From a virus, in IMG/VR virus record IMGVR_UViG_3300007735_000798, positions 32,001 through 96,000 of that record: 64,000 bases of DNA. One strand, written 5' to 3'. Every line of letters starts with the position of its first letter. The first letter of the stretch is position 1. Below are positions 12,757 to 35,170 of this stretch, in pieces. The notes under the pieces are model-generated. The model worked only from the letters and a program-made list of their open reading frames with translations. It was not told the DNA's origin and made no database searches. The position numbers and the translations under genes are program-made.

Positions 12757-12795
12757 AACCTTTTACCTTTTATATTATATCCTTTACTGTATAAT

Positions 12796-14700
12796 TTACA
12801 CAAAAAAATCTTCAGTATTATTATAAATTATATAATTATTTTTATTTTCATAAAAATCTCCAGAAAATAAATCAAAGTTACTATTTTCTACATAATTATT
12901 ATTTAATTTTTGTTTAATGCCATTCAAATAAACCTGTGAAGAAGTTTTATTTAAATTTTTTGTTTGTATTTTTAATGTTGATTCATTTCCCGTAATATTG
13001 TTTAAAGTTGGAATTGATTTAATATATACATAATTATTTCCAGAAGGTATATTTAAATTAAAAGTATTATTTCCAGTATAAGTTATTCCAGATATTAATT
13101 TTTGCCCATTAACAAATACAAATTTATTATTAAAATTTTTTCCAGCCAATTGCATTCCAGAATGAATTCCAGTAATAGATAAAAATTCAAAATCACCAGT
13201 AAATCCATCATAAAAAAGATCATCATTTCCATTTATAAGATTATTAACGTAAATTTCATTGCCAGTAATAAAATAGTCATTATTAGTTCTAATAAAAGTA
13301 TCATAACCAATTGTTTCTAAATAATATCCAGAATCTATAATAAGTTGACCATTACAAAATACTAATGTTCCAGAAGTTAAATTATTTTCAGTGGTAAAAT
13401 TATTTTTAATAAAATTAAAATTTAAATTTTTATTATAATTTAAATTTTTATCCTGATAAGATTCATAATATACTTCAACAATATCATTCTGTTTATTTAT
13501 TTCTGATAATAAAGAAATTTCGGAAAAAGATAATGATTCTAAATAATCTGTATCTTTAAAAAAGATACTCGCGCCAGTTTCTAAAAAAACTCCAGTACAA
13601 ATTTCTCCAGTAATATAAACTTGTTTTGATCCAGTAATTTGACCAGTTAAAGGTATTTGGTTATAACCAGTAAAAGAAATTATTCCAGTTTGTGGAAAAT
13701 TATATGAATAATTTATTGTAATTAATCCAGATAATGGTGTTTGACCATAAATTGCAGATGTGATATTACAGTTATTACTATAATATCCTAATAAAATATT
13801 ATTATACCCAGTAACGCCACTATATGAATAGCCAGTTACACCAGTTATATATCCAGTAATTCCAGTAATATTTAAATTAGAACTGTTTGTTAAAAATCCT
13901 GTTATTCCACTTGTTGAAAATCCAGATTCTATAAAATAACCAGTAGTATAACATGTATTTTGTATATATCCAAGTTTACCACTATAAATATGTAATATAC
14001 CGCTTACAATATATTGATTATAAAAAAATGGAATATTTTTAAATATAAAAAATTTATCTACATATCCACTAAAATTAGAACTATTATTAGCCCAATTTAT
14101 ATTTGGATATATCCCACCAAGAAATAATTGGTCAGATTGTTTAAATACATTATTTTTTATATAAAATGTTTCTGTTTCAAATGATAATGTATTATTATTT
14201 AAATTACCCATCGTTAATACATTATTATTGCGATTTATTATTATTAAATTTTTATTCGCTAAAATATTTGAAGCAGTAAAACTAAATACTCCTTCTACAT
14301 TATTCCAATATTTAAAATATAATTTATTAGCATTATTAACTCCAAGACAAAACCCAGAATATGTAGAAAAAGAATTTCCAGTAGCGGAAGAAAGTAAAAT
14401 TTCATCTCCAGTTCTTAATTTTTCATAAGAAAGTAATATCGTATCATTATCAAAAGTATAAGGAGCATTTAATTTCATTATTGTTGAACCATTAAAATAT
14501 CCAGTTCCACTATATTGAAAAAATGTACCAGTAGATCCAGTATTTAAAATACCAGAAAATGAATTTATAGCCCAATTATCTGGAGGTACAGTCTGATTAT
14601 TAATTAGTGATTTATTATAAAAACTAAAAGCAGCTGTAGCACTAGAAATTGGAACCCCAATCTGGTCTAAAAAATACGGCATTCCAGTAAAAAATATCAT
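12796..14700 (-). CDS. Tail protein, LamG/concanavalin-like N-terminus with TG repeats and VxxNG-K/Q-L repeats
   Basis: 634 aa; GFCLGVN..LFLGG..FSGYVD; ITGITGYITGVTG. Confidence 0.55.
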   Translation of the reverse strand: MIFFTGMPYFLDQIGVPISSATAAFSFYNKSLINNQTVPPDNWAINSFSGILNTGSTGTFFQYSGTGYFNGSTIMKLNAPYTFDNDTILLSYEKLRTGDEILLSSATGNSFSTYSGFCLGVNNANKLYFKYWNNVEGVFSFTASNILANKNLIIINRNNNVLTMGNLNNNTLSFETETFYIKNNVFKQSDQLFLGGIYPNINWANNSSNFSGYVDKFFIFKNIPFFYNQYIVSGILHIYSGKLGYIQNTCYTTGYFIESGFSTSGITGFLTNSSNLNITGITGYITGVTGYSYSGVTGYNNILLGYYSNNCNITSAIYGQTPLSGLITINYSYNFPQTGIISFTGYNQIPLTGQITGSKQVYITGEICTGVFLETGASIFFKDTDYLESLSFSEISLLSEINKQNDIVEVYYESYQDKNLNYNKNLNFNFIKNNFTTENNLTSGTLVFCNGQLIIDSGYYLETIGYDTFIRTNNDYFITGNEIYVNNLINGNDDLFYDGFTGDFEFLSITGIHSGMQLAGKNFNNKFVFVNGQKLISGITYTGNNTFNLNIPSGNNYVYIKSIPTLNNITGNESTLKIQTKNLNKTSSQVYLNGIKQKLNNNYVENSNFDLFSGDFYENKNNYIIYNNTEDFFV

Positions 14701-16310
14701 ATTAAAATATCTCCTTGATAACTATAATTTTCTGTTATTTCATATATTTTTGAGAAAGCATCTTTTTTAATAGTTCTTTTTTCTAACAAGTAATTTTTAT
14801 TTAATATATTATATACAGTTTTAATTCTTTGTAATTCTGAATTAACTTCGCTAATTGCGTAATCAATATTTTTATCTGGTTTCGCAACAGCAGATATATT
14901 TAACTCTAGTTGCGCGAGATTTGCACAATTTATATCTTGAATATTATGCTCTCTTTTTTGGGTAATAGATGATTTTGGTACATAAATAGATATTGATGGA
15001 TTATATTTTAAACTAGACTTCATTGTAATTACATTATCTGAAAAAGGTTTTCTTTTATCAGACCAAGAAGCTGTATATTTAATTTCGGCACCATATTCAT
15101 TAAAAGTAATTGATTCCGTCAGTGGCTGTGAATAAAGACTACGACCAGTAATTTCTTTTTTATATTCAGTATTAGCCAAATTAAAAGCATTAAAATTACC
15201 ACTATAATAATCTTTTACTAATCCCCATCTCGTATTAACGTCTCCATATTTTCCAAAAATTGTGGCATCTAATTTTACAGTAGTAATATTTTTTATAGGA
15301 TCGGTAGTTAAATCAACATTATAATTATTTGTAATATTAGATAATAAGTCGCTATTATAAGTTAAATTAAAATTTAATTTTTGATTATTGAATTCTTCTT
15401 GTACTGATTGGGTAATAGGATTTGAATTTAATGTTGTACCAAACGTTTTTAATGAAGCCTCGTTTGCTATATTATAAAAATTATAGTCAAAAAATCCTGA
15501 TCTTAAATTATTAGAAGTTGTCCCAGTCACAATATTATTACTTAAAGACCCATCAATTTTAACAGTAATAAGCCCATCTTCAATTCCAGAAGAAATATCT
15601 AAATTATAATCAAGAACTGCATTCGCAGGTGACTCCAAAAAATTTGATTTAACATAAGACCCCTCCCAAGAATATGTACCATCAAATCTGTTTACTGTTT
15701 CCTTAATTGATTGTAATAAAAAATTAGAACCATTACCCGTTTGAGCAAATATTGGCGTAATTTTATTATAATTTCCAGTTCTAGTTTTTACCCAATTTTT
15801 AGCACTTTCAATTGCATTTAAATTTCCAGTTTTTAATCCTTTTGCGGATATACTATGTGTTAAATTAACAATAAACCCATTCTCTTCTGAAAAATCAATA
15901 TTCTCTTCTGGGTCCGTTACTCCATAATATTCGGTAAAAAGACCACTTTCATATATTTCAAAATCAATTGTAAAAGGTAAGATTCCATAAAATAATCCTT
16001 CATCCGTTTTAATTGAATCAATAATCACGTTATTGCCAGAAAATAAATTTTCAGAATTTTCATTAATAACTAAAGTACCATAATTATTACTTAATCTATT
16101 AACAAGTAAATTCAAACCACTATTTAATTCATAAAAAGACAATTGTCCTAAATTTTTTCCAGTAATTTGACCATTTAAAGTCATTTTAGTGACTTGATTC
16201 CATTTAGTATTAAAATTAATAAAATCTTGATTTATAGAAATAAAAGGGGTCGGTGATATACCATCAAATAAATCAGTATCATTATATAATATTTTGATAT
16301 TATTATTCAT
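14697..16310 (-). CDS. Distal tail/tail tip protein
   Basis: 537-aa beta-rich ORF after the tape measure; shares NRFDG/NKFDG-type motifs with 16310..18280. Confidence 0.5.
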   Translation of the reverse strand: MNNNIKILYNDTDLFDGISPTPFISINQDFINFNTKWNQVTKMTLNGQITGKNLGQLSFYELNSGLNLLVNRLSNNYGTLVINENSENLFSGNNVIIDSIKTDEGLFYGILPFTIDFEIYESGLFTEYYGVTDPEENIDFSEENGFIVNLTHSISAKGLKTGNLNAIESAKNWVKTRTGNYNKITPIFAQTGNGSNFLLQSIKETVNRFDGTYSWEGSYVKSNFLESPANAVLDYNLDISSGIEDGLITVKIDGSLSNNIVTGTTSNNLRSGFFDYNFYNIANEASLKTFGTTLNSNPITQSVQEEFNNQKLNFNLTYNSDLLSNITNNYNVDLTTDPIKNITTVKLDATIFGKYGDVNTRWGLVKDYYSGNFNAFNLANTEYKKEITGRSLYSQPLTESITFNEYGAEIKYTASWSDKRKPFSDNVITMKSSLKYNPSISIYVPKSSITQKREHNIQDINCANLAQLELNISAVAKPDKNIDYAISEVNSELQRIKTVYNILNKNYLLEKRTIKKDAFSKIYEITENYSYQGDILI

Positions 16311-18280
16311 TATGAATATTTATAAACCTCCTCATAACCTATTATTTGCTCAATTTCATCAGAAGTAAAATTACAAGATTCTAAATATTTACCAGAATTT
16401 CCACCAAAATAATAATTTCTTAGTTGTGTTTTTAAAGTATCAAAATATAATAAACCATTAAAAATTCCCGTTTGACTTGTTAATCCGATATCTGCTTTAC
16501 CTTCTATGGTAAAAGTACCCTGTTGTTTCAAATCTCTATTATGCACTAATTCATATTTATTATTTGGAATTATATATTTTTTAAAATAAGGTGTTAATTG
16601 CGTACCAGAACTTCCATCATCAGAATAAGTAATATCTAATTTTTTGATATCTCCTAAATCTGTTCTAATAGTTGGATCATCAGTATAAGTATAATTATAA
16701 GTAATTTTCCCATCAAATGGCGTTCTTGTTATTTGCTTATCAATTAAATTTATACCACTAGAAGCTTTTTCCAAAGCCTGTCCAGACCAAAAAGATTTTA
16801 ATCTTGACTCTATTCCTGTTTTTACTACTGCCCAGCCAGTTTCTGCACTTAAATATTTTGCAGAATTAATAATAGAATTTTTTTCTCCAACACCAATTAT
16901 TGAACCTTGTTCATTAACACTCCATATGAATTGCTCATTACGATTTAATGTAGAAGTATAATCAAAAATATAATTTTTAGAAAACTTTTTATCATTATTA
17001 AATGACACATCATATTCAATATTTCCATCAAATTTATTTATACGAACTGTTTTTTCAGCCAAAACAGTATTTAAAGCATCAATTATATTAAATTTATTTT
17101 TATAGGCTTGGAAAAAATTATTACAACGTAAATAGGCCCCAGTAATTTCTTTATTTAAACCAATTACGGCATTTTCATATAAACTTGGAATATTATTTTC
17201 AGCTTTAATTGAACAATTTTCACCTACATTAGCTATACCATTATTATCTAATGAAATATTTAAATTTCTATTTATAGAATAAGGTTCTAAATTATTGTTA
17301 GTAGAATAAGAAAAAGTTTTAGTAAATCCACATTTTCCGTTAATAATATCATAAGATTCATTTCTTAATACTTTATAAGTTCCTTCTTGTCTAGTCGAAT
17401 AATTGTATTCTGATAAATTTATTGGAATAGACTTATTTAATAATTCTACGGCTAAACTTTGAGCCAATGTTATTACATTAATATCTTTATTATCAGCATT
17501 ATATTCAATATCTATAGAATGTGTTCCACCTAATATTTTTGTATTATTATCAAAATCAAAAGTAAAATTTTCACTAAAACTTTTTATAAGATCAAATCTT
17601 TTATTTGATAAATTTAAAATATAATCATTATCAATAGCTAAAGTTGTATTACCCGCAAAACCTAAAAATCCAAGAAAAGTTATTCCAGTTGGTGGGGTCA
17701 TTTCACTACTAGACCTTTGAAATCTTGGCGTATTAGAGGATCCAACCCCTGTAACAGGCGATATTCTCCATTGCGTACTAGACGCATTCCACAAAGCATA
17801 TATATTTGTAGTATCATAATAAATTGGTCTAGAATTCAAAATTTGATTTGTTTTATAAAATTTATATCCCGAAAGATTTGGAGATGCACCAGAGGTATTA
17901 CTAACTATATAATTTGAAGAAATGAATTCTTTTGATACTAAACTTTGTAAATTTGCTGTTGTATAAATTTCAATATCTGCATTATATTTTGTAGAACGTA
18001 CCCAATTCCCTTCGTCAAAAGATAATGATGTAATTTTTCCGATACCAAAGTTTTGACCTTTTATTATTATATTATAAAAATTTTGGGCAATATTTTTAAT
18101 TCTATTTACATCTGTAAAAATATCTTTAACTCCGACCGTGTTAGTTAAATCTAAAACATAACCACGAATAGAAAGTGTTTTTGTCGTTGAGTATTGAAAT
18201 GATTTTTCACCCAAAAAATTATTTTGGTGGTTATATCCAAGCACCTCAATGTTATCTAAAATTAATGTTTCAAAAGACAT
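16310..18280 (-). CDS. Distal tail/tail tip protein
   Basis: 656-aa ORF immediately downstream of the tape measure. Confidence 0.5.
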   Translation of the reverse strand: MSFETLILDNIEVLGYNHQNNFLGEKSFQYSTTKTLSIRGYVLDLTNTVGVKDIFTDVNRIKNIAQNFYNIIIKGQNFGIGKITSLSFDEGNWVRSTKYNADIEIYTTANLQSLVSKEFISSNYIVSNTSGASPNLSGYKFYKTNQILNSRPIYYDTTNIYALWNASSTQWRISPVTGVGSSNTPRFQRSSSEMTPPTGITFLGFLGFAGNTTLAIDNDYILNLSNKRFDLIKSFSENFTFDFDNNTKILGGTHSIDIEYNADNKDINVITLAQSLAVELLNKSIPINLSEYNYSTRQEGTYKVLRNESYDIINGKCGFTKTFSYSTNNNLEPYSINRNLNISLDNNGIANVGENCSIKAENNIPSLYENAVIGLNKEITGAYLRCNNFFQAYKNKFNIIDALNTVLAEKTVRINKFDGNIEYDVSFNNDKKFSKNYIFDYTSTLNRNEQFIWSVNEQGSIIGVGEKNSIINSAKYLSAETGWAVVKTGIESRLKSFWSGQALEKASSGINLIDKQITRTPFDGKITYNYTYTDDPTIRTDLGDIKKLDITYSDDGSSGTQLTPYFKKYIIPNNKYELVHNRDLKQQGTFTIEGKADIGLTSQTGIFNGLLYFDTLKTQLRNYYFGGNSGKYLESCNFTSDEIEQIIGYEEVYKYS

Positions 18281-21200: not shown

Positions 21201-24200
21201 AATGGGCGGGCATCTTTTTTATATTCTCCAGTGTCAGGATTTACGCCAGTTAATAACCCTAATTTTTTACCCGTTTCTTCGTCTAATTTTTTTAAAATAG
21301 GCAATGCCTCTTCTCCCTTTTTACCCTGTAAAGCCATTCCAATGAATGTATCTCCAAGAAGTTTTATATTTTTTTCAACATCAGCGGTATCTGTTCCCCT
21401 AAATAAATAGTTATCTCGTCTACTAGCTAATTCACTAACCTTCTCGACATTAGCTCTATTTTCCTCTGCGCGTTGTTTTTCTCCTCTTATTTTTGCCATT
21501 TCTGCTTGTTGCGCAGTTTTTCCTTGTTTGCTTACAATTCTTGCCTGATCTTCTGGTGAAAAATCTGCAAGAGCAGCGGCATATTCATCTTGGGCCTGTT
21601 TTACTTTTTGTGGATTTGGAACGGCTTCACTTAAAGCATTTTTTAAATTTTCGCTAGCAGTTGTTAATCTAGCTGAAGCATCATTAAATTTTGTTAATTC
21701 TTGACTAGCTTTTTCATGTGCGGCAATCGCTTCTGGTAATGTATTATTAAGCTCACTAAAATAATCATTCGCAGCCATAACTCCTCCAGCTATAAGCCCA
21801 ATCGCGCCACCCGCAGCAGCCCCATAAGGACCAAAAGCCAGTCCTAATTGAGCACCAGTAGCTCCTAAACTTAGTGCTTGTCCCGCACCAGTAACAGCTG
21901 CCGCCGTTGCTCGTCCTTGCGGACTTGTCTGTGAAATAGTATTTTTAATAGTGGCCGCAAGAATTGGAGCACCAATTGCTATTGCACTTCCATATGCATC
22001 CGCAGCAGCACCAAATTTTTTTACACCTTTGGCTGAATCACCCAATGCTTGAAGATTTTGTCTATATTGATTTGTTGTTCCACTTAATACATAACTAAGT
22101 CCAACTAATTGAATACTTAACGCACCAAGTGCTGAACTAGTACTTGTAGGCTCTTCTGCATAATTTGGTACAAAACCGCGAGAATACATTCCAATACCTT
22201 TTCGCTCGCGCCCAATAGCATCTTTTAATCCATTTGGTTCATCGCGTGTATTTGTCACAGCAATTGGGTTTCCATTTTTATCAAAATGTGCACGAATTTG
22301 AGAAACTGGAACGCCACGATTAGTAGAAGCAAAATTTGGAATAAAACCTTTCGCCATTCCTCTACTTAAAAATGCTGGAATATCTTTTTCAAAAATTCTA
22401 CCAGGACCATTAGCTTGTTTAATTGGCCAAACAATTTGATCTTTACTTAAAGGTAGTCCATAAACAGAGGCACCACCAGTCTCCATATCTGGAAGTAGTT
22501 CTGAACTTTTTAGTTTATCCCTATTATATCTTACTAACCAAGAACTTTGTTTTCTAGCTGAAGCCCAATTTTTTGCACGACCAATATTTTGTTTATAAGC
22601 TTGCCTATCGCTCATTTTTTCCCCTGGTCGGGAAAGAGCATCCCACATGTAAGTTCCAGAGCCACCAAAATATTCCATAGCAGATTGGTCAGAAGATCTA
22701 TTTCGGAAGGCCCATCCTTTACCGAATTTAGATAACATCATTTTTAATTCTTTGTCATCTACGGCTCTTACGAGTGGTGCTGCAAAATTTGGAATAAAAC
22801 CGCGCGCATAAATTGGAAAATCTTCTTCTCTTTTTAGTTGGCCTTTATTTTCTACATATTTTCTAACCATTTGACTATCAAAAGCGATACCCTTGCCACC
22901 ATGAGTTCTAGATAATCTAAATAAAACTCTTTGAATATCAAATTCTTTTCCTGGAAATTTTTTTAATAATAATTGGTAGACTTTATCATCTACAATTCTT
23001 TTTTTAGGGAAGGTAATTTGTCCATAAGCTCCTTTATAACCTTCTTGTTCTTCATCTGGAGAGGCAAATGCTTGGGCAACTTTTTTATTTTTAGAAGTGC
23101 TCATCATTCGCCAATTAACATCAGTCTCAAAATCTTGAGAAACTTGATCAAAAATAGCATCTTTAATCCCAGTAGGTTCAAAATCATCACCAGGAGTACC
23201 TAACATAGTAAAATCTTTATGTCTATAATCGTCTTTTCTACCAGCTCTTAGATTAAAAATACTTTGTTTATTTAATTTTTTAAAATCTTTTCCAGGAACT
23301 GAAACGCCACGATATAATTTTTCTGTTTGTTCTGATCTGCCTAATTTTTTAATTATAGATAAATATTCTCTTAAAATTTGAGCATCAATTGCTTGGGATT
23401 TAAAATTAGGATTAGTATTAATATCTTTACGTCTTAGTGCTAAATCTTTACCAGTAGCTCTTGGTAAATCTTTAAAGTCAATACCACCCAAAAATTTTGG
23501 TGATGCAAAATTTGGAATAAAACCAAAAGCAGCTCCAGGCCTACGAAGAAACTCCATTTCTTTCATTTTTGTGGCTTGAGATTTAAAACCCATTTTTAAC
23601 GCACGTTCTCCACGAGAACTTCTAGCAAATTGAGTAACTTGATCAAAATCGTTTTTTGTCAAACCATTTTCTTCAAATTGTTTTTGAACATATTTCCAAT
23701 CTCCGATTTTTAATGCATCGACATTAAAAGATCTCCCAAGCCAACCTTCACCCAACGCTCTAGATAAAGCTTCAATTTTAGCACGACCCTTTAGTGGGAA
23801 TCCAGGTTGTTTTAGAAAAGCGTCTAAACCAGAAGTATTAACGCCCAATTTTGTTGCGGCTTTTATATAAGCATTATTCGATAAACCACTACCCTCCGAT
23901 AACTTAGTAGATATATTAGGATTAGTTATTCTACTATTTATAATTTCTATTAATTTTGAATTTGCAAAATTTGGAACAAAACCAGCAGCCATACCTTTTG
24001 ATCTACTAATTCTTGCCATTTCTTCTTTAATTGCTTTTTCTAGTTGTGGTCCTCTTCTTAGATTTTGTCCTTGAAGATTTTTTAAAGCTTCTGTTCTTAA
24101 TGCTTGTGATTGCTTATAACCAGCACCACTTTTTACTTGCTTTACTTCTCCAACTTTAGCTTCTTGTAGTAACTTGCTCATTACATCATTAACTAATTCT

Positions 24201-27181
24201 GGAGAATATTTAGCATCATACATTCCAGGAGCACCATGAAATAGATTTCTTAGTTTAGGGGTTATTCTATTTTGACGAAAATCAATTCCTGCATTTTGAG
24301 AAGTTTTTTGTAAATTTTGTTGAAGTAAAGTAAGTAAACCACCTTCAAAAGCAACGCCAACAGCCCCTTTTGCCGCACCAAAATTTGGAAGGTCTTGTGC
24401 TGATTTTAAGAAATTACCCCCGCCAATTGCTTGACCAAATTGATTTGCCTCACGAACTAATAGGTCACCTAAATTTTTATCTAAATCTGGAAGTTCGCCC
24501 TTAAGAACTTGCTTATTAATTCCAGCTACGGGAATTAAACCTTTATATTGTTGTCCTAAATAACTTGCTGTTGCTGGGGTCATCGAATATCCTTCAGAAA
24601 CCCCTGGATGAATTAGAGAAACAACTTTGCCTTTTAATGCTGGAGAAGTTGTTGTATCTCCAAGATCAATCAAATTTTTTCCTTGCGCAAAATTTGGAAT
24701 AAAACCAGAAGCACGATTTTTAAATTTTGATGCAATTATATTTGCAGCAGAAGCTCGCACTTTAGGATCGTTAAAATTTTTACCTTTTCCAGCAACATTT
24801 CCAAAAAGAGTTTTTCTATCAATATTTCTAACAGAATCAATTAGAATGTTTGATAAAAATAAAGAATCTCCTTTTTCGAGACCAGAATTTTTAAAAACTG
24901 AAGAATTAGCAACGCTAGGATTTTTCTTTAAAATTGCCCCAACACCAGCACGTAAATTTACTATTTTATCACGATTACCATCTCCTGGAACTAAAATTGA
25001 TCCACCACTTCCAGGTGGAATTACTTGATTTCCAAGAATTTGTGACCCCGAAAGTCTTAATATTTTAGATATATAACTAGCTTTATTACCTTCAGATTCG
25101 CTTAATTTTGCATCTCCATATAATGTTCTTCTATTAATACCAAGAAGATTTTTAACTTCTGGATTTACTCTTGCGCTAGATAATACGTTTGGTGCAAAAT
25201 CTATAATATCAGAATCTTCTAAATAAGCTTTTTTAAGACCTAATGATAAAGCAATAGCATTGTCAAAAACTTTACCAGCAGCAAAACTTTTTTGATATTG
25301 AGATATATTTTTTTCATTTGCAAAATTTGGAATATATCCTTTCGCCGCCATTTGTACACCATTTCCATACATTGGAATAACCATTGAATCACCATTACTA
25401 CCAACTCCAGGATATTCAATTTCTTGGTTATTCATTACAAATTTTTTACCACCGATTGTACCTTGCGACATGTGTGGCCGAACAGAAGGAGTTGCACCTA
25501 AAGCAATTGCCTGTGCTTTTTCAATTTGCTTATCCGAAGCAAAATTTGGAATATAACCAGCGGCTTTACCAGTTTTTTTCGTTGGCGCTATTGGTACTCC
25601 GCCAGTAACACGAACTCCAGCACCATAAAACGCTTTAGAAATTTGCGCTGCCACCGCAGCTTGTTTTTGTAATTCAACAGTTTGTTTTTGTAAATTTGCT
25701 AACAAACTATTAGCGGCAGCATTCAAACCCTGCTCACCTTTTAAAGCAAGTTCAAGAAGCTGTGGATTTTTAGATAAAATTTGATTGATACTTTGTTGTA
25801 AACTTTGTTGTTGTACTGCGGCCTGATTTAAACCAAGAAGTTGTTGGACACTTCCAGTTGCAAATTTCCCTAAATCACGAAAAAGTTTAAGTAATACTCC
25901 CCCAATAATTGCTAAACCAGGACCCGCAATAAATTGAGCCAAACCATCTATAATACCTTTACCAAGTGCAGATCCAACTCCAGTTCCTTCAGATTCGTTT
26001 ACCCCACCCAATATTTTATTAGCTCCACCGACAACACGTTCGAATGCTGGACCGAGTAAACGGTTTCCAGCCGTTGCCGCTAATTGTGTGGCATTTTGTT
26101 TTAATGTATTAATTTGTGCGGCATAAGTTTTATTTAGCGCGTCATTTCTTTTAACGGCTTCGTCTGTAGAACTAGCTGCAACATTTAAAGCGCTATTATA
26201 AATAGAATATTCTTTACCTAAATCAGCAAGAGCGGCTTTTAAAATGTTAATTTGAAAAACACCACCAACCTGTTCGGCTACATAAGCTTGTTGTTGCGCT
26301 CCAAGAGTATCATAAACCTTACCTAAATCTTGCAATAATTGAATTGTAGATTTTAATTGTCCAGAACTATCAGTAGTACTTATTCCTAAACTTCCTAAAA
26401 GATCTTGAACCTTACCACGTTCTAAACGTGTAAAAATTGTTTTAAATGAGTTACCAATTACAGCGCCACCGCGTGCAGTAGTTTGCTGTGCTGATGTGAC
26501 AATAGCAATAAGTTCATTAAGTGAAACCCCAGATTGTGCAGCACTACTACCAACACGACTAATAGCTTCTGCAAGATCCGCCGAACTAACTGCGAAAGCA
26601 GCATCAACATTAGCAAATTTATTTACAACTTCACTAGCGGTTACAGCTTGACTCGCAAAAGAATTGACTGCGGCAGTAAGGGCTTCAACACTTTTTGCCG
26701 CATCAAGACCACTTAAACGTGAAAGAATAAGAGCTTCATTAGTACGTTTTAATGTTTCTGCGACACCCAAACCTTGACGAGAAAATTCTGTAGCTGCTTT
26801 GGCTACTTCTTGAAACCCCTGTCCAGTATTTTTAGCAATATTAAACAATTCACCACCAAATTTTTGTAATTGTGAGGCTGAAACATTTAATATAACATTA
26901 ATATCTTGTAAAGATTTTTGTACTTCAATAGTAGATGAAACTAATGCGCTGAAAGCTTTTTCTAAACCATATATAATTCCAGCACTTGCTCCGAATGCGA
27001 TAACACGGGCATTAGATGCATCTAATGATTTTGTAAATTCATTAACTTGCCCAGTAATACGCCCCAAAGGCTGATCGCCTTTAGTTTTTAAGTTAATAGA
27101 ATAAACTTTATTGACAGTTCTTTGAATATCTCTGTCTAATTGCCTAGTATTTCCACCAATATCTAATGTAATAGCAGCCAT
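18287..27181 (-). CDS. Tape measure protein carrying multiple inserted domains separated by G[FY][IV]PN[FY]A motifs
   Basis: N-terminal TP901-type TMP core (EVAKAATEFSRQG..GAVIGNSFKTIFTRL), Ala/Gly-rich hydrophobic helices, coiled coils, position after tail tube and chaperones, 2964 aa. Confidence 0.9.
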   Translation of the reverse strand: MAAITLDIGGNTRQLDRDIQRTVNKVYSINLKTKGDQPLGRITGQVNEFTKSLDASNARVIAFGASAGIIYGLEKAFSALVSSTIEVQKSLQDINVILNVSASQLQKFGGELFNIAKNTGQGFQEVAKAATEFSRQGLGVAETLKRTNEALILSRLSGLDAAKSVEALTAAVNSFASQAVTASEVVNKFANVDAAFAVSSADLAEAISRVGSSAAQSGVSLNELIAIVTSAQQTTARGGAVIGNSFKTIFTRLERGKVQDLLGSLGISTTDSSGQLKSTIQLLQDLGKVYDTLGAQQQAYVAEQVGGVFQINILKAALADLGKEYSIYNSALNVAASSTDEAVKRNDALNKTYAAQINTLKQNATQLAATAGNRLLGPAFERVVGGANKILGGVNESEGTGVGSALGKGIIDGLAQFIAGPGLAIIGGVLLKLFRDLGKFATGSVQQLLGLNQAAVQQQSLQQSINQILSKNPQLLELALKGEQGLNAAANSLLANLQKQTVELQKQAAVAAQISKAFYGAGVRVTGGVPIAPTKKTGKAAGYIPNFASDKQIEKAQAIALGATPSVRPHMSQGTIGGKKFVMNNQEIEYPGVGSNGDSMVIPMYGNGVQMAAKGYIPNFANEKNISQYQKSFAAGKVFDNAIALSLGLKKAYLEDSDIIDFAPNVLSSARVNPEVKNLLGINRRTLYGDAKLSESEGNKASYISKILRLSGSQILGNQVIPPGSGGSILVPGDGNRDKIVNLRAGVGAILKKNPSVANSSVFKNSGLEKGDSLFLSNILIDSVRNIDRKTLFGNVAGKGKNFNDPKVRASAANIIASKFKNRASGFIPNFAQGKNLIDLGDTTTSPALKGKVVSLIHPGVSEGYSMTPATASYLGQQYKGLIPVAGINKQVLKGELPDLDKNLGDLLVREANQFGQAIGGGNFLKSAQDLPNFGAAKGAVGVAFEGGLLTLLQQNLQKTSQNAGIDFRQNRITPKLRNLFHGAPGMYDAKYSPELVNDVMSKLLQEAKVGEVKQVKSGAGYKQSQALRTEALKNLQGQNLRRGPQLEKAIKEEMARISRSKGMAAGFVPNFANSKLIEIINSRITNPNISTKLSEGSGLSNNAYIKAATKLGVNTSGLDAFLKQPGFPLKGRAKIEALSRALGEGWLGRSFNVDALKIGDWKYVQKQFEENGLTKNDFDQVTQFARSSRGERALKMGFKSQATKMKEMEFLRRPGAAFGFIPNFASPKFLGGIDFKDLPRATGKDLALRRKDINTNPNFKSQAIDAQILREYLSIIKKLGRSEQTEKLYRGVSVPGKDFKKLNKQSIFNLRAGRKDDYRHKDFTMLGTPGDDFEPTGIKDAIFDQVSQDFETDVNWRMMSTSKNKKVAQAFASPDEEQEGYKGAYGQITFPKKRIVDDKVYQLLLKKFPGKEFDIQRVLFRLSRTHGGKGIAFDSQMVRKYVENKGQLKREEDFPIYARGFIPNFAAPLVRAVDDKELKMMLSKFGKGWAFRNRSSDQSAMEYFGGSGTYMWDALSRPGEKMSDRQAYKQNIGRAKNWASARKQSSWLVRYNRDKLKSSELLPDMETGGASVYGLPLSKDQIVWPIKQANGPGRIFEKDIPAFLSRGMAKGFIPNFASTNRGVPVSQIRAHFDKNGNPIAVTNTRDEPNGLKDAIGRERKGIGMYSRGFVPNYAEEPTSTSSALGALSIQLVGLSYVLSGTTNQYRQNLQALGDSAKGVKKFGAAADAYGSAIAIGAPILAATIKNTISQTSPQGRATAAAVTGAGQALSLGATGAQLGLAFGPYGAAAGGAIGLIAGGVMAANDYFSELNNTLPEAIAAHEKASQELTKFNDASARLTTASENLKNALSEAVPNPQKVKQAQDEYAAALADFSPEDQARIVSKQGKTAQQAEMAKIRGEKQRAEENRANVEKVSELASRRDNYLFRGTDTADVEKNIKLLGDTFIGMALQGKKGEEALPILKKLDEETGKKLGLLTGVNPDTGEYKKDARPLEEKVKDLQTILEDSLGGVVGSAEFIESTINAAKRTNQDYLDTLIVLQRAASDANYATRQNVTSSNQYAQALRDTENAQLSAAKANEAMIKSLQKNIDLAKKSIVIEQKKRSFAREFSYTEQFTNPAQLISQLTGQESRMTKDFELKSEFAKLNIDFEQSVDDIMVEMATAINDAVLPTKEQLDSDKNLRTRLNISENGKSPVIDAFIEKINSEIIDKKNLQPEYLSEIFTPLLNNLGFFGKPLEDKLSELIGITSKGNDKAEEAAKLLQEKQVKLAQETTQKRLVDAIKQAQNFGGGIEEFINPPKYGESAFDKVAKSANTVAALNTKGVFRTNQFGEYRYQGSEAERARKELLPKYGRNALQYVQSLQELTGYTPDANSQIYKEIVAGLSQNLTNKIQLLTKQVQGNQNLPDQFKTELLTALKQTQALGGEELIAKIQVAQALGVTNESLLQEIRDKIKTTSDTKEKQALEKMLTSYKDDIILSSDPTVQAINITNNILKQILERTGEPGNPTPYIPIAKYKSVESTSNAKGFLPGYNKESRDIGRGVGGAKPGDRPQFIPNLNGSPAFINSGEKLVDNFGGSGQTAVLTRNMQKAIGMAKGFIPNFAEENKNAKFGRTIGLEDTLDSLIPFFEDIWNRFQVNSTTKLASVANSAKNIFKSGAIGIGAEASTQYALDNLFHGGKKSENPYIDQLEKIFSTAVGGAASGLAIGKNPLAAVYGAITSLGIGAGKDLLTTGAMIPDLISSTNGTVFAEAQTLKLKEKLLKSGKLPPGTTPDNLAGGFIPNFAYKNSVMDLEERLSGNKAIYGTKPFPHIRNSSQPTFASAIADHGGLDKALNDSMIGQKSAGLMSRGYIPNFAVSEQSFTQIESSLDTNTSALTSLLSAIQNLNTSLSSLQNTTDASNMQNNQGINSPSIANTTNAPINLVVNAESGGDVASAVAAEIQKQIPRITREIQSAMGIKVPPSKP
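18618..25558 (-). repeat. 11 dispersed copies of the motif encoding G[FY][IV]PN[FY]A
   Basis: Copies start (plus-strand coordinates) at 18618, 18831, 19374, 22158, 22329, 22782, 23505, 23964, 24687, 25320 and 25539. Four are the identical 20-mer GCAAAATTTGGAATAAAACC. Confidence 0.95.
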
Positions 27182-27219: not shown

Positions 27220-28239
27220 TTAATTATTTTCGCGCGCTTTAAAATAATCAGATTTTTCAAGTGTTCCACCCTGTTCTGCGGCTAATTCTAATAAACTTTT
27301 ACCCTTTAATTTTTCTATTTTTACACCTAATTGATTTAAATCTTCTTTTGTAGCCCCCACAAAACTATGAACAGAATTATCTCCATTTCCAGATTTTCTA
27401 TTTTTAGATTTTATACCAGGTATATTTGATTGATTATCAACCCATTGAACAAATTTATCTGGATCATTTACTATTTCATCTAAAATTGGTTTACCATTTT
27501 CTGCATGATTTTTTATTATATTTCTATACATTTTACCATACAAAATAAGATCAATTTGATATTTTGTACAATTAACCGTTGATTTTCCCCAAAAACTGTA
27601 AGCATCTTCGCTTAAATATACAAGATTTTGAAAGAAACCACTTGCAGCAATTCTTTTAATATTATCAGTATTAAATATATTTGAATATGTTTCAAAAGCA
27701 TTTTTAATTTTATCTAGATCCTCTTCTTTTAAATCATAATATTCTTCCCTATTATTGAATAGTTTTTCTGAAAATTCTATATTTTTATAACTAAAAAAAA
27801 ATAATAAATCTTCCGTTAATTTACTATTTGCGTAATCTTCCAAAGTATAACCAACAATTTCTCTACGTTCTTTTGTATAAGTAATTAAAATAGCTTGATT
27901 TTGTTTTATTTGTTTATCAATTTGCTCTTTCTGGGATGATAAAAATAATTTATCTCTAGTTTTATATAAATTTTGTATAGTTTTTTTTAAAAGAGAAATT
28001 GTAGATTCTTTTTCTGATGCCCACCAGCCACCTTTAATAGCAATCTCTATTTTTTCTTTTTCTGATTGGAGGCCCTTTTTTTGTCCATCACTAATAAAAA
28101 TATCATAATTAGTATATACTGAAAAATGTTCAGCGATACTTGGATGTTTAAAATAAATATATGATTTATTTATTTTTTCTTCAGAAAAGCCTCTGCATAT
28201 TTGGCTGTAAATTCTACCATATTCTGCATTTTTATCCAC
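27220..28239 (-). CDS. Probable tail assembly chaperone
   Basis: Helical 339-aa ORF immediately upstream of the tape measure. Confidence 0.5.
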   Translation of the reverse strand: MDKNAEYGRIYSQICRGFSEEKINKSYIYFKHPSIAEHFSVYTNYDIFISDGQKKGLQSEKEKIEIAIKGGWWASEKESTISLLKKTIQNLYKTRDKLFLSSQKEQIDKQIKQNQAILITYTKERREIVGYTLEDYANSKLTEDLLFFFSYKNIEFSEKLFNNREEYYDLKEEDLDKIKNAFETYSNIFNTDNIKRIAASGFFQNLVYLSEDAYSFWGKSTVNCTKYQIDLILYGKMYRNIIKNHAENGKPILDEIVNDPDKFVQWVDNQSNIPGIKSKNRKSGNGDNSVHSFVGATKEDLNQLGVKIEKLKGKSLLELAAEQGGTLEKSDYFKARENN

Positions 28240-28240
28240 A

Positions 28241-29041
28241 TTAACTTGGTTTTATTTCTTCTACGAGAACACTATTTTCTTTAACATTTTCTTCAATTTT
28301 ATTTTCGATGGGATTTTCTTCAATATTGCTTACAGTATTCTCTTTCAAGAAGTTTTTATCAAAAGCTGCAAAATCTTCATTTGTATCTACACGACCTAGA
28401 AACCAAAGCGTGACTAAATAAGTTATTCTACGAATAACACCTAATAAAAATTCATACTTATTTTCTTCTTCTTCTTCAAAACTATCATATTGCAAAAGTT
28501 TTTCTTCAAATGTATCACCTTTAAAAATAGATTTATAATTATCTCCATCTTTTTCGTATGAAAGATTCATGACCCACCAAAGAATTGCACGATTACGAGC
28601 TTTTGCTTCCGCAGTATTTTCAAAAATACTTATTTGAGAAGCTTCAAAATTTTGAATAGCTTTACGAATATCATCAAGATTATTAATTAATTCATCAGAA
28701 CGAATTTTTTCTGCATCCGTCCTTTCAGACTCTCCTTTGATTAGAATTGATTGTAATTCAAAAGAAAGATCACGAAATTTTAAAAGAAGATTTCCATATT
28801 CTTCGCGTTCTTGATCACTAATACTACCGCCCCCATTGGAAAGAATAGTACCCCAAGCAGCTTTTGGTAACACCCCTGCCTTTGCAAAACGCGATGTTTC
28901 GGTGGCATAAAAAAGTTCTCCATCTTCACGTAAACGACGATTTGGTTTGAGTAACCCAAATTTTTTAACGATAGTTTCTTGACTACCATCTTCTTTTTTT
29001 ACAACATTGTTTGCCTCAAATTCGTATAGCCATTTATTCAT
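28241..29041 (-). CDS. Probable tail assembly chaperone
   Basis: Acidic helical ORF between the tail tube and the tape measure. Confidence 0.5.
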   Translation of the reverse strand: MNKWLYEFEANNVVKKEDGSQETIVKKFGLLKPNRRLREDGELFYATETSRFAKAGVLPKAAWGTILSNGGGSISDQEREEYGNLLLKFRDLSFELQSILIKGESERTDAEKIRSDELINNLDDIRKAIQNFEASQISIFENTAEAKARNRAILWWVMNLSYEKDGDNYKSIFKGDTFEEKLLQYDSFEEEEENKYEFLLGVIRRITYLVTLWFLGRVDTNEDFAAFDKNFLKENTVSNIEENPIENKIEENVKENSVLVEEIKPS

Positions 29042-29050
29042 ATATTTATA

Positions 29051-29275
29051 TTATTTTCCTTTTAAAGTAAAATCAAAATTATTTAATTGTTCTTCTATAT
29101 TTCTATGACAATTATTACCATGATCAAGAACACGTTTTCTTAATCGCTGAAATTCTTCTTCATTAATTTTATTATCACTTTTTAAATCTTCTATACAATA
29201 TAAAAAACTTAAATATAACTTTTTAATTTCTTTATAAATAAGACTTTTAACAAAATTATCAATATTGATATCCAT
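29051..29275 (-). CDS. Hypothetical protein
   Basis: 74-aa ORF with an upstream GTGTAA motif and AAGG-rich leader. Confidence 0.65.
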   Translation of the reverse strand: MDINIDNFVKSLIYKEIKKLYLSFLYCIEDLKSDNKINEEEFQRLRKRVLDHGNNCHRNIEEQLNNFDFTLKGK

Positions 29276-29322
29276 ATATAGAACCTTGAGTAACCTTTTA
29301 CCTAATAAGGTTTACACCAAAT

Positions 29323-29352
29323 AAAAAAAATGGGCACCAAAAGGTGCCCATT
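29323..29352 (-). terminator. Rho-independent terminator after the tail tube gene
   Basis: TGGGCACC-TTTT-GGTGCCCA hairpin followed by T8 on the minus strand. Confidence 0.85.
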
Positions 29353-29370
29353 AATTTTAATATAATTATA

Positions 29371-30507
29371 TTATACTCCTTGCGGTGTTGGAGGAGGATT
29401 ATAACTGCCAGATAAAAAGATACCTCTATCTGTTTGTTGAGCACTACCAACCTGTACTTCAAATGTCGCACTCATTGTAGCCCCATCACCGATAGCAGAA
29501 CTAAAGTTTTGGCTTGTTAATTTAGCGCCTCTAAATTCATATGTAAGGGCATTGGCTCCAGTTCCGCCACAAGCAGGTTTTTTCATTGTAATTACGAAAT
29601 TATTTAAATTTGTATCACAAAGTAATGACGATAGATCTCCAGTGCCGTTTGATAAGTCGCCAACTTGAGCATTCATAGTTAATGTAGCTGTAAGTGGGAA
29701 ATCAATTTCACGAGAGAATGCGTAGCGACTACCTAATTTTTGAAGTGGTGTACGCCCAATATCAACTGCTAATGAAAAGTCTTGAACTTTTAAATCAACA
29801 GGGTCAAAACCTAATAAACCAGTTGGTGTAAACGTAATATCACCAGGAAGCAATGCATTTGGAATTGAAGATCCAGTCATGGAAGTAGCTGCTGGAAGTT
29901 TAAATTTAACTCCTGTTAATAGTTGACCATCAGCGGCATTAACACCTGGAGCAACTGCCCCACTCCCACCTGGACTTGCGGCATTAAGATCTCCATAAAT
30001 ACGAACATTCAATCCTTCAATTTCAACGTCAGCACTTGGAATATCACCAACAGCAGCATTAACTGTATATGAAGTTAAGAAGCCATTTCCAATACCAATT
30101 ACGCCAGTTCTTGCGCTAGTATAGCCAGCAGCATCATTACCTTCGTCAGCAATCATTAAATAATAATTTTTTTGATCAGTTGCTCTTGTCAAAAGTCCAG
30201 AAATAATAGAAGCATTACCAGCCGAACCAGTCGTCGCACTAGTTAAACCCAAAAGTCTTTCATTAAGACCGTCAGTCAAATAGTATGAAAAACTTGCTGT
30301 TACAGTTGGAGCTTCTACCTCTAAACGATCAATAGCGGCTAAATTTCCAAATTGATTGACATCTTGGAAAGTGCGTGTAAAATCTTCATCGAAACTTTGA
30401 ACACGACCTAATTGTTGAACGGCTCCAAGACCAGTTTGTTGTCCAGTTGGAGAGACTTGACTCGCATAAAGAGCCAATACATTGTAAATTGTTCTATTTC
30501 TTGCCAT
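29371..30507 (-). CDS. Major tail tube protein
   Basis: 378 aa, Gly/Thr/Ala-rich, highly expressed codon style, own terminator; RVQSF..DVNQFG, RTPLQKLGSRYAFSR. Confidence 0.75.
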   Translation of the reverse strand: MARNRTIYNVLALYASQVSPTGQQTGLGAVQQLGRVQSFDEDFTRTFQDVNQFGNLAAIDRLEVEAPTVTASFSYYLTDGLNERLLGLTSATTGSAGNASIISGLLTRATDQKNYYLMIADEGNDAAGYTSARTGVIGIGNGFLTSYTVNAAVGDIPSADVEIEGLNVRIYGDLNAASPGGSGAVAPGVNAADGQLLTGVKFKLPAATSMTGSSIPNALLPGDITFTPTGLLGFDPVDLKVQDFSLAVDIGRTPLQKLGSRYAFSREIDFPLTATLTMNAQVGDLSNGTGDLSSLLCDTNLNNFVITMKKPACGGTGANALTYEFRGAKLTSQNFSSAIGDGATMSATFEVQVGSAQQTDRGIFLSGSYNPPPTPQGV

Positions 30508-30550
30508 AATTATAATTACATCTTATTTTTTTGTTAGACACTCGATATTT

Positions 30551-31411
30551 TTAATATACTCTTGGTTGTCTAATACTTTTTAGTTCAAAATCTGCTATTG
30601 CAGCTATTGTTTTTTTATTTATATATAAATTTTCTGATTCGTCAAATTTTGTAATATCAACTTTATGAATATAAACTAATTGATTTTGATTTTGCATTTT
30701 ACACATATTTATATAATTATAATTATTTCCATCTTTAAAATCTCCAAAATAGTTAAAAGGTAAATCTTCTGGATTAAATACAGGAAATACTTTTCTGGCA
30801 GAATCAGCAAGAATTGATGTTAAACTATCTAAAGAAAAACTATCTTTTGCTAAAATTATACATCTTATCCAATAATTTGATTCATCTAATCCGCCAAAAG
30901 CAAAAGGTTCATTTTCATTTGTTTTTAATTTTATGAATACGCATGGATATGGTAATTCTAAATAACCAAGAGCGCCAGTAACTCTTGATGTTTGCGGAGT
31001 TAATGAATAAGATTTTTCAAACATCAAACGGTCTTCACGTTCATCTGTATAATATAAATTAAATTCTTTAAAACTATATTGCGTAGTAAAATTTTGATTT
31101 GTTGGAATTTGATTTCCAGAAAAAATAATTCTTCCATGATTATAATCAATCGCTAATCCATTCTGACCACGAGAAATAAACTGCGAACCAGAAACTATTC
31201 CACTTGGGATATAAGCATTTGGAATACTAGAATCATAAATCCATTGTTTAAATGGAGATCCATAAACAGATGATGTCAATTGAAAATTAGGATCTTCTGT
31301 TTCATATAGTTTGCCACTATAAGTAATAAAAGCCTCTCCACGACTTAAAATTTCATGATCTAACCACAAATAAAAACTTGATGTAAGATTATTAATATAA
31401 GAAGCTTTCAT
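30551..31411 (-). CDS. Probable tail terminator/neck protein
   Basis: Position upstream of the tail tube; YPCVFI motif. Confidence 0.5.
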   Translation of the reverse strand: MKASYINNLTSSFYLWLDHEILSRGEAFITYSGKLYETEDPNFQLTSSVYGSPFKQWIYDSSIPNAYIPSGIVSGSQFISRGQNGLAIDYNHGRIIFSGNQIPTNQNFTTQYSFKEFNLYYTDEREDRLMFEKSYSLTPQTSRVTGALGYLELPYPCVFIKLKTNENEPFAFGGLDESNYWIRCIILAKDSFSLDSLTSILADSARKVFPVFNPEDLPFNYFGDFKDGNNYNYINMCKMQNQNQLVYIHKVDITKFDESENLYINKKTIAAIADFELKSIRQPRVY

Positions 31412-31989
31412 TTAATTTTTCCTCCTAATTTTTTTATGAAATTATTATATAATGGAGTAAAATATGATATTCTAGTAAATACTTTTCCACGAAAATTTTT
31501 TCTTGACTGAATTGCTTTTCCAGAACGCGAATTTTCAAATTTACCATATAGATAAGCACCTAATCCAGATATTGATTTTTCTACTCCCCATAGCCAACTT
31601 CTATTTTCCCATGGCATTTTACTTGCATTACCGAAATCTTCTTTTGAAGGAACATAAATATTTACTACAAAATTATTTTTATTAAATAATATTTTTTTAT
31701 TAATCTTTATATTATTCAATAATGACAATATTGGAGCAATTGGGTTCGAACTATTAGAAAAACCAATGAATGAAAATAAATTTCCATAACCACCTAAAGT
31801 TCCAGATAAATTACTAGCATTTTCTCCACCCTCAATTTCTTGAGTAACAGGATGTTCTTTAAATTTTGTAATTAGAATATTTTTTTCAGCTTCTACCGAA
31901 GCATTGGCAATTTGTAAAACTTTTTTTTGAACATTTGAATTTTCAAAAATTATTTTTTTTAAAGCTTGTTTATCTATTTTTCCAGCCAT
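31408..31989 (-). CDS. Probable neck/tail completion protein
   Basis: Basic 193-aa ORF in the head-tail joining region. Confidence 0.45.
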   Translation of the reverse strand: MAGKIDKQALKKIIFENSNVQKKVLQIANASVEAEKNILITKFKEHPVTQEIEGGENASNLSGTLGGYGNLFSFIGFSNSSNPIAPILSLLNNIKINKKILFNKNNFVVNIYVPSKEDFGNASKMPWENRSWLWGVEKSISGLGAYLYGKFENSRSGKAIQSRKNFRGKVFTRISYFTPLYNNFIKKLGGKIK

Positions 31990-31990
31990 A

Positions 31991-32422
31991 TTAATTACTT
32001 TCTTCTAGGTAGATAGTATAAAAGTTAGGATCAAAAAGCCCATGTGGTTCACTTGTTCCAAAAAATTGAACGTTACGACCATCAATTTCTACACTTTTCC
32101 AGTCATCAAACCAACCAATATCTTCTTTTTTAATTTTTAATCTTACAATGTTACCATGAACTTCTTCTTTAATATCTTTTTGACCTTTCAAATCGGATGG
32201 ATCTAACCATTTAATTCTTGCGTCTATAACTCCACTAACTGGGGTATATTGTACTTCAATACCTTCTTGAGCATCTGTATATATGAAATTATAATTTAAA
32301 TTTGTAGAAATTATTGTACGTTTAGGTGTTTTATAAACTATAATTTTTCTAGAAAATGTATCATGAATATCATTAAATACATTATCATATAATAATTGAT
32401 CAGCATCAGGAATAAGATTCAT
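31991..32422 (-). CDS. Probable head closure (stopper) protein
   Basis: 143-aa beta-rich ORF, gene order. Confidence 0.45.
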   Translation of the reverse strand: MNLIPDADQLLYDNVFNDIHDTFSRKIIVYKTPKRTIISTNLNYNFIYTDAQEGIEVQYTPVSGVIDARIKWLDPSDLKGQKDIKEEVHGNIVRLKIKKEDIGWFDDWKSVEIDGRNVQFFGTSEPHGLFDPNFYTIYLEESN

Positions 32423-32423
32423 A

Positions 32424-32960
32424 TTAGTAAGTTACCCTATTATATTCTTGTATAATATAAAATGATTGACCAATTGTATCATCGCCAACGACTTGATCGG
32501 GAATTGCCCCATATTTAAGATACATTTTAACAGAATCTTGTAATGATTTATAAGCATCATTATAAAATGCACGAAAAGTTTTTGCAATCTCGTGTGGATT
32601 TACTCTTGTAATTGAGCTATCAGCTTCTCTTAAATTTATCCAATCTGAACCTTTTGTGGCAGCACTTCTTGCGAAATTTTCAGCTAAAGATGCATAATAT
32701 TCAACTTCAAATAATTGTTTATAAATAGCCATTTGATCATTACGCATACTTGGCTCTACGCCATAGCCCGTAATATTTCCACAATCATTAGTATAGGCAA
32801 TACTAGAAAAATTTGTACCAATTAAATTATTTAATTTACCTACATTTGCATTATCTAGAAACCAAGAAGCAACCCTATCTTGAGAATAATCCGAAGGGCT
32901 TCCTAAACCTTCATAAACCCCATTTATAAAATTAGAAAATGTATAATTTTGTGTACTCAC
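32424..32960 (-). CDS. Probable head-tail adaptor
   Basis: 178-aa ORF, gene order after the capsid. Confidence 0.45.
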   Translation of the reverse strand: MSTQNYTFSNFINGVYEGLGSPSDYSQDRVASWFLDNANVGKLNNLIGTNFSSIAYTNDCGNITGYGVEPSMRNDQMAIYKQLFEVEYYASLAENFARSAATKGSDWINLREADSSITRVNPHEIAKTFRAFYNDAYKSLQDSVKMYLKYGAIPDQVVGDDTIGQSFYIIQEYNRVTY

Positions 32961-32980
32961 ATAATATTTTACACAAAAAA

Positions 32981-33358
32981 TTATGCACCCTCTCTTAATA
33001 TCTTTTGAGCCTGTGAATCTAAATCTAAAACAGATTTAACACCACCTTCAACGATATTACTACCATATCTTGAATTCCATTTAATAAATTCTTGAACTAA
33101 ACGATCTGTTAAAACTTTACGATCTGGTGTTGGTACAAGACCAATTTTATAAGCATGAGTTTGTAAATCAGTCATATTCATTTCCGCCAATTGTCCACGA
33201 TATTCATCAGAACTATTAGCTGTATAAATAGATAAAGTTTCTCCTAAAATTTCATCTAAAGAAGATGGTTTTTTTTGTACAGTTTCTTCTTTTCCGTGAA
33301 TTTGTAGCATTTCTTTTTTACTCGGCCTACCTCTTTTTCTTTTAGTTTTAGTGTTCAT
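32981..33358 (-). CDS. Small protein with N-terminal AT-hook-like motif
   Basis: KRKRGRPSKK followed by a helical domain. Confidence 0.55.
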   Translation of the reverse strand: MNTKTKRKRGRPSKKEMLQIHGKEETVQKKPSSLDEILGETLSIYTANSSDEYRGQLAEMNMTDLQTHAYKIGLVPTPDRKVLTDRLVQEFIKWNSRYGSNIVEGGVKSVLDLDSQAQKILREGA

Positions 33359-33404
33359 CTTAAATATTATTACATTTAATGTAAAAATAATCTAATTTTT
33401 TTAT

Positions 33405-33433
33405 AAAAAAAGGGCCACCCTTTCGGATGGCCC
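33405..33433 (-). terminator. Rho-independent terminator after the major capsid gene
   Basis: GGGCCATCC-GAAA-GGGTGGCCC-TTTTTTT on the minus strand. Confidence 0.9.
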
Positions 33434-33468
33434 AATTTTAATTATTTGCTATTATTTAATTATAATAA

Positions 33469-34581: not shown

Positions 34582-34607
34582 ATTTTTAATTTTTTCTTTC
34601 TAATTGA

Positions 34608-35147: not shown

Positions 35148-35170
35148 ATATTTTTATTTCTTTCTATTTT

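Follow-up and report, generated by a model that had tools for sequence, protein, structure and literature searches.

The tape measure protein (TMP) encoded in the stretch of viral DNA analyzed here contains a cassette of 234 amino acids that is self-contained, exchangeable and optional. The stretch (hereafter the window) is 64,000 nucleotides long and covers positions 32,001 to 96,000 of IMG/VR record IMGVR_UViG_3300007735_000798, a virus contig of 104,736 bases with about 31% G+C and a completeness estimate of 69%. Our results directly support the assignment of the gene as a TMP, the modular and optional nature of the cassette, and a significant similarity of two of the three motifs of R-S-E ADP-ribosyltransferases (ARTs) to those of Mod proteins, the family of T4 ModA and ModB. 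Judging from these sequences, there is about an even chance that the cassette is a divergent, ART-like descendant of the Mod/Alt (R-S-E) clade, which keeps the Arg and S-T-S elements and which the TMP carries into the host at infection.

A separator-bounded cassette in a tape measure protein

The open reading frame (ORF) that hosts the cassette (P0001; 18287..27181, minus strand) is intact, encodes 2964 amino acids and is a phage tail tape measure protein. Pfam places PF10145 (PhageMin_Tail/TMP core domain) at residues 116-307 with E = 1.9e-27, and 13 PHROG tape-measure families match the ORF, the best at 5.5e-54. A Pfam scan of the whole TMP returned no family besides PF10145, and no zincin-like protease was found. 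The protein consists of a core at the N-terminus, cassettes bounded by separators in two arrays, and an extended middle and C-terminal part of helical or hydrophobic character; hydrophobic stretches lie at residues 409-435 and 1779-1804. The separator, G[FY][IV]PN[FY]A, is present 12 times, in 11 copies and one degenerate copy.

The cassette (residues 1227-1460; 22802..23503, minus strand) sits between separator 5 (G-F-I-P-N-F-A, residues 1220-1226; 23504..23524, minus strand), its upstream boundary, and separator 6 (also G-F-I-P-N-F-A, residues 1461-1467; 22781..22801, minus strand), its downstream boundary. A preliminary description of the window had proposed an R-S-E type ART domain inside the tape measure, between motifs 5 and 6, and the PF10145 and PHROG matches together with the separator positions bear out this placement exactly. 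The span it gave, 22802-23504, starts correctly and ends one base beyond the in-frame module. The plus strand of this span is full of stops and has no open frame, and the cassette is read from the minus strand. Separators 5 and 6 are identical at 21 of 21 nucleotides (GGTTTTATTCCAAATTTTGCA); in most of the other copies, one to three synonymous changes are seen. Identity of the flanking separators would suit recombination there, but codon bias alone could explain it.

Homologues of the cassette are rare. Among about 15 billion proteins, only P0002 (99% identity) and P0003 (81%) were found. A word-index search returned the same two proteins and no others, and phmmer across 1.8 billion representative proteins returned P0002 and a spurious repeat protein, P0004, which was ruled out as a homologue because its match is a repeat artefact. 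The cassette is exactly 234 residues long and separator-bounded in all three carrier proteins, and its neighbors differ among them: the module that precedes it here comes after it in P0003, and P0002 has others. Because the flanking modules are different in all three proteins, the cassette domain cannot reach past the separators. An ART fold that runs past a separator into the next module was rejected on the same ground.

The conserved TMP core (residues 1-541; 25559..27181, minus strand) is common to 15 IMG/VR phage loci, with 74-85% identity in 10 of them and 38% in the other five. In loci L046-L055, the related TMP ORFs start near 10000. The TMPs of the 10 closer relatives are 1960-3506 residues long (two run off their contigs at 840 residues) and contain two to eight separators with varied sets of modules. 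The cassette is absent from all 10, and the TMPs of the five distant relatives have no separators. Pfam recognized no family in 10 other cassettes from the present TMP and its relatives. Neither a related-locus search nor tblastn recovered the cassette from viral contigs or GenBank phages, a degenerate DNA pattern of the S-T-S block had no match in metagenome, genome or viral collections, and a mixed cassette and Mod alignment used as a search probe gave no matches. The module that adjoins the cassette downstream (residues 1468-1611; window 22349-22780) scores below 0 with the Mod and Alt models described below and has no Pfam or PADLOC match; a homologue of it occurs in locus L049, at residues 1117-1316.

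Similarity of two blocks to the Mod family

The Arg block, E-K-L-Y-R-G-V-S (residues 1287-1294; 23300..23323, minus strand), contains R1291, the candidate catalytic arginine that would bind nicotinamide adenine dinucleotide (NAD). The S-T-S block, W-R-M-M-S-T-S-K-N-K-K-V-A-Q-A-F-A (residues 1357-1373; 23063..23113, minus strand), contains S1361-T1362-S1363 followed by a helix-like A-x-x-F-A. The strings quoted in the preliminary description are all present in frame on the minus strand: EKLYRGVS at 23300-23323, WRMMSTSKNKK from residue 1357 at 23081-23113, and QLKREEDFPI at residues 1448-1457 (22811-22840). The aromatic-R-G element of R-S-E ARTs is found as L-Y-R1291-G, which is invariant in the three homologues and in a MAFFT alignment of cassette and Mod sequences. 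The S-x-S element, which belongs to strand beta-2 in this clade, is likewise found with its helix; the S-T-S is invariant in the three homologues, and S135, A143, F146 and S148 (segment numbering) are invariant in the MAFFT alignment.

To quantify the similarity, we used 27 distinct Mod-family proteins of the T4 ModA/ModB type and 13 Alt catalytic domains as comparison sets. A hidden Markov model (HMM) of the Mod family scores the cassette at 16.0 bits (P = 3e-7 for one comparison) over two colinear blocks. Its first domain places segment residues 44-70 on the block ending klyRGis (8.5 bits), and its second places residues 132-148 on RvmSfskdlkvArnFas (5.6 bits). With the same model, two of the three copies of the cassette reach 16.0 bits and the third, in P0003, reaches 13.4 bits. 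BLASTP pairs the Arg block with LYRGIS of ModB, which holds R73, and the S-T-S block with VVSASYDKNIALHFAS of ModA. R73 of ModB is essential for activity (PMC10468400). Identity to the Mod relative P0008 amounts to 10 of 18 residues around S-x-S and seven of eight around the Arg.

None of the control sets approaches this score. The maximum of the Mod HMM was 4.0 bits on 2000 shuffles of the cassette, -0.6 bits on the 12 other modules of the same TMP, and 3.1 bits, cassette copies aside, on about 70 modules of 18 related TMPs. Among 1241 natural 234-residue windows from the phage group, the runner-up scored 6.9 bits, and in all six frames of the whole 104.7-kb contig the cassette was the sole match, with no other score above 5.7. 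For calibration, the true paralogues Alt and Mod score -1.7 to 8.4 bits on each other's HMMs. The Alt HMM gave no signal with the cassette (-2.0 bits). The aromatic-R-G and S-T-S-plus-helix signatures reported earlier are thus upheld, and by HMM score they match the ModA/ModB family better than T4 Alt does. In a profile comparison with hhalign, the three cassette copies align with the Mod family at a score of 27.3 (P = 0.0024), colinear across all three motif positions, and none of 200 column shuffles reaches this value (maximum 23.3).

Searches of family libraries with the cassette, comprising Pfam (E up to 10, in a library that did not include PF26816), NCBIfam, PHROGs, PADLOC and PDB sequences, were all blank, and PF03496 was not matched anywhere in the contig at a cut-off as loose as E = 10. 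When T4 ModA and ModB were run as positive controls against Pfam and NCBIfam alongside the cassette, they matched no ART family either; PF03496 matches P0008 at no better than E = 0.0089, and the Mod-family profile reaches the solved ART XopAI only at E = 0.065. Little can be read into the lack of Pfam and NCBIfam matches, since these libraries miss ModA and ModB too and the Mod profile barely reaches XopAI. PDB matches to SidD (E = 0.057) were dismissed as noise.

The third motif and competing explanations

The third motif of R-S-E ARTs, the catalytic [Q/E]-x-E that opens strand beta-5 (ARTT loop), was not found. Alt and Mod recognize each other via the block E-x-E-h-h-h-P-x-G, and an HMM of the ExE block made from 40 Mod and Alt sequences is blank in all three copies over the C-terminal 94 residues and the 30 that follow. 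Two stretches are candidates for the motif. In R-E-E-D (residues 1451-1454; 22820..22831, minus strand), hhalign puts E1452-x-D1454 on the E-x-E of Mod; across the three copies, E226 and D228 (segment numbering) do not change whereas E227 does, P0003 having R-E-Q-D, and the counterpart in ModB is R-E-Q-E. With this placement, the domain would end about eight residues further on, without the last strands of the fold. In F-D-S-Q (residues 1434-1437; 22871..22882, minus strand), MAFFT puts D1435 and Q1437 on the E-x-E columns of Mod. This stretch lies in the longest identical run between the 81%-identical homologues, and its placement keeps the length from S-T-S to the end nearly equal (99 versus 104 residues), aligns an invariant Arg (R1425), sets D-F-P-I-Y-A on the last strand and leaves no acidic residue at the catalytic column. 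The third motif cannot be placed by hmmalign because it aligns the first block only. Both candidates are invariant in the three copies, and neither has a Glu at the catalytic column. The late acidic motif of the preliminary description exists (R-E-E-D here, R-E-Q-D in P0003) without being a canonical E-x-E, and the caution expressed there over the catalytic Glu was well placed, as the ExE-block HMM detects no [Q/E]-x-E.

Loss of the Glu does not prove inactivity, because Asp precedents and ART-fold NAD glycohydrolases exist. HopF2 uses an Asp, D175, as the catalytic residue (PMC4263708), the ARTs of polyvalent proteins are of the H-Y-D type with Asp at the catalytic position (PMC5512222), and effector families of ART-fold NAD(P) glycohydrolases with non-canonical catalytic residues are known (PMC13285283). 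Judged from its sequence, enzymatic activity of the cassette is uncertain.

The undetected [Q/E]-x-E and the early end of the domain that E1452-x-D1454 would imply are among several points that weigh against descent from the Mod/Alt clade. The Arg and the S-T-S are 70 residues apart, a gap that exceeds the one in Mod proteins by about 40. With HMMs that cover the Mod sequence upstream of the Arg block or downstream of the S-T-S helix, the corresponding parts of the cassette do no better than shuffles. Because the signal is confined to two blocks, the statistics re-measure features that the earlier reader had seen, and P = 3e-7 convinces at the scale of the phage group but does not when billions of residues are scanned. 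The hhalign probabilities are only 12-36%, and at lower stringency hhalign gives an out-of-register alignment of similar score, for which reason we count this evidence as weak. Conservation says little with three homologues in a set of about 15 billion proteins. The AlphaFold2 models are unusable: the mean predicted local distance difference test score is 36.4 from the single sequence and 36.6 from a three-sequence alignment that includes the separators. No NAD-related partner gene was seen. With the fold not predicted and the E-x-E lacking, the case is weaker than at first sight. The earlier identification as an R-S-E ART stands for the two blocks that match the Mod family; it does not extend to a third motif, to similarity outside the blocks or to recognition by family searches.

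Some of these points would suit a chance resemblance, in which an orphan, fast-evolving TMP module of unrelated fold happens to contain two short motif-like stretches. Two blocks, 27 and 17 residues long, hold all the signal and the rest behaves like shuffles; there is no E-x-E and no fold model, Pfam, NCBIfam, PHROGs, PADLOC and PDB are blank, the out-of-register hhalign alignment scores equally well, and the P value is not significant over the billions of residues scanned. A protein-language-model atlas has viral clusters with PF03496, PF26816 and PF01129 among the nearest named ones (0.91, 0.89 and 0.86), which speaks for the Mod/Alt reading, but weakly by the calibration of the atlas; its rule that a named family is 'probably wrong' if five or fewer of the top 10 agree counts on the side of chance. 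However, the two blocks are colinear and in the right order, and each spans the expected catalytic element and its surroundings. The identities to P0008 around both elements, a score twice that between true ART paralogues, and the lack of any close score among the 1241 natural windows or the roughly 70 sister modules also argue against coincidence, and ARTs in virion proteins of phages are not improbable a priori (PMC5512222, PMC9503650). We consider a chance resemblance rather unlikely.

A second explanation accepts homology with Mod and Alt and holds that the module is degenerate: catalytically dead by loss of the E-x-E, it would now bind NAD+ or a host protein, act as a decoy for one of them, or only add length to the TMP. 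Significant Arg and S-T-S blocks beside an undetectable E-x-E block are what such a history would leave, the D-S-Q that MAFFT sets on the E-x-E columns of Mod agrees with it, and the cassette is dispensable, as shown by the 10 related TMPs without it. On the other hand, loss of function is not expected to preserve NAD-binding blocks so like those of Mod, both candidate motifs, E-x-D and D-S-Q, stay unchanged in the three copies, and ARTs that rely on an Asp exist (PMC4263708, PMC5512222). In our view a dead module is unlikely. It is also conceivable that the cassette is an ART-fold NAD+ glycohydrolase and no transferase, with the Arg, the S-T-S and a non-Glu third position cleaving NAD+ without a protein acceptor. 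The existence of such families with non-canonical catalytic residues (PMC13285283) and the absence of the transferase E-x-E from the cassette are compatible with this idea. It is nevertheless very improbable, given that we found no similarity to any of those families. A benefit to the phage would also be unclear, as NAD+ depletion is normally an abortive-infection tactic of the host.

We therefore return to descent from the Mod/Alt clade as the favored reading and outline how it might work. The cassette would derive from the phage Mod/Alt clade of ART domains and would have retained R1291 of KLYRGVS, the Arg on strand beta-1, together with the S-T-S strand (S1361-S1363) and the helix after it, elements of the kind that hold NAD+ in that clade. 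The canonical E-x-E would have been replaced by E1452-x-D1454 or D1435-S-Q1437. As a part of the TMP, the cassette would be housed in the tail lumen, exit before the DNA does at infection and then fold or refold in the host, where it might use NAD+ to modify a host target or hydrolyze it. An ART fold (a split beta-sandwich), NAD binding, catalysis, delivery, a target and a benefit to the phage are inferred, as are the injection, host takeover, anti-defense role and NAD consumption that the preliminary description proposed. It is tempting to go further and to regard the TMP as a delivery platform that swaps cassettes at its 21-nucleotide separators, and the cassette as an active NAD+ enzyme of the Mod/Alt clade that uses E-x-D or D-S-Q and is delivered through the tail lumen; this fuller version is possible and we hold it only tentatively.

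Genomic setting and relation to known systems

Elsewhere in the window, 10 large ORFs beside the TMP (10120-18280 and 27220-36985) presumably encode tail, head and portal proteins, and none of them matches a PHROG family at E <= 0.001; judging by these blank neighbors, the phage lineage is very poorly charted. A glycosyltransferase GT4 gene (37068-38222, plus strand; PF00534, 2.4e-20) is set within the block of structural genes and is encoded on the strand opposite to theirs; a second glycosyltransferase gene, GT9 heptosyltransferase-like, is found at 1495-2688 on the plus strand (PF01075, 7.3e-11). A 1391-residue protein (41353-45528, minus strand) with two BppL_N stretches (lower baseplate protein N-terminal; PF18338, 2.8e-26) is probably a receptor-binding or baseplate protein. 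The terminal 13 kb or so of the contig (window 59000-64000; record about 91000-104736) has about 48% G+C, compared with about 29% elsewhere. It contains only short ORFs (at most 242 residues, table 11), and reading through one stop codon opens little more. No tRNA, Rfam family or GenBank phage match was found in this region, which might reflect a chimeric join, flanking sequence or an unusual stretch of small genes.

The closest known counterpart of the cassette is the T4 ModA/ModB family (PF26816, Mod_ADP_RT), which belongs to the Alt/VIP2 clade of R-S-E ARTs. EKLYRG[VI]S in the cassette copies corresponds to PEKLYRGIS, and R-M-M-S-T-S-K..VA..FAS to R-V-M-S-F-S-K..VA..FAS; the order of the blocks and the phage origin are also shared. 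The cassette differs in that it has no E-x-E, a stretch between Arg and S-T-S about 40 residues longer, and no similarity outside the two blocks. Moreover, ModA and ModB are free early proteins of 200 residues, whereas the cassette is embedded in a tape measure. In concept it resembles T4 Alt, a ready-made ART in the virion that is delivered at infection (PMC5512222, PMC9503650). However, Alt is an internal protein of the head with a canonical E-x-E, while the cassette is part of a tail protein and goes unrecognized by the Alt HMM.

Polyvalent proteins of phages and conjugative elements offer a further parallel, being giant multi-module virion proteins that are thought to be injected with the DNA and whose modules are shuffled between relatives (PMC5512222). 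ART is their commonest enzymatic module, although their ARTs belong to the H-Y-D (Tox-ART-HYD2) clade and not to R-S-E (PMC5512222). They are defined by several effector domains with a processing metallopeptidase, usually a zincin-like protease; in the present TMP, Pfam gives PF10145 only and no such protease. The term 'tape measure' does not occur in the paper on polyvalent proteins (PMC5512222), and tape measures are likewise absent from a 2022 survey of viral NAD and ADP-ribose systems, in which about 3% of siphoviruses had ARTs (PMC9503650). Full-text literature searches that combined tape measure with ART and effector terms returned no description of a NAD-using enzyme fused to a TMP. Virion-borne ARTs are established for T4 Alt in the head and predicted for polyvalent proteins.

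If an ART-like module that can be exchanged does reside in a TMP, the first protein to leave the tail would double as an effector carrier, and the range of ways in which phages pre-load enzymes for host takeover or anti-defense would be wider. A working R-S-x enzyme without the catalytic Glu would also be of mechanistic interest, as a new catalytic variant of the R-S-E ARTs. Enzymatic motifs embedded in TMPs have a precedent: mycobacteriophage TMPs carry peptidoglycan hydrolase motifs. There, as here, an extra globular module is inserted in the TMP and its presence varies between relatives, but the known inserts act on the cell wall, whereas the cassette is proposed to use NAD and to be directed at the cytoplasm.

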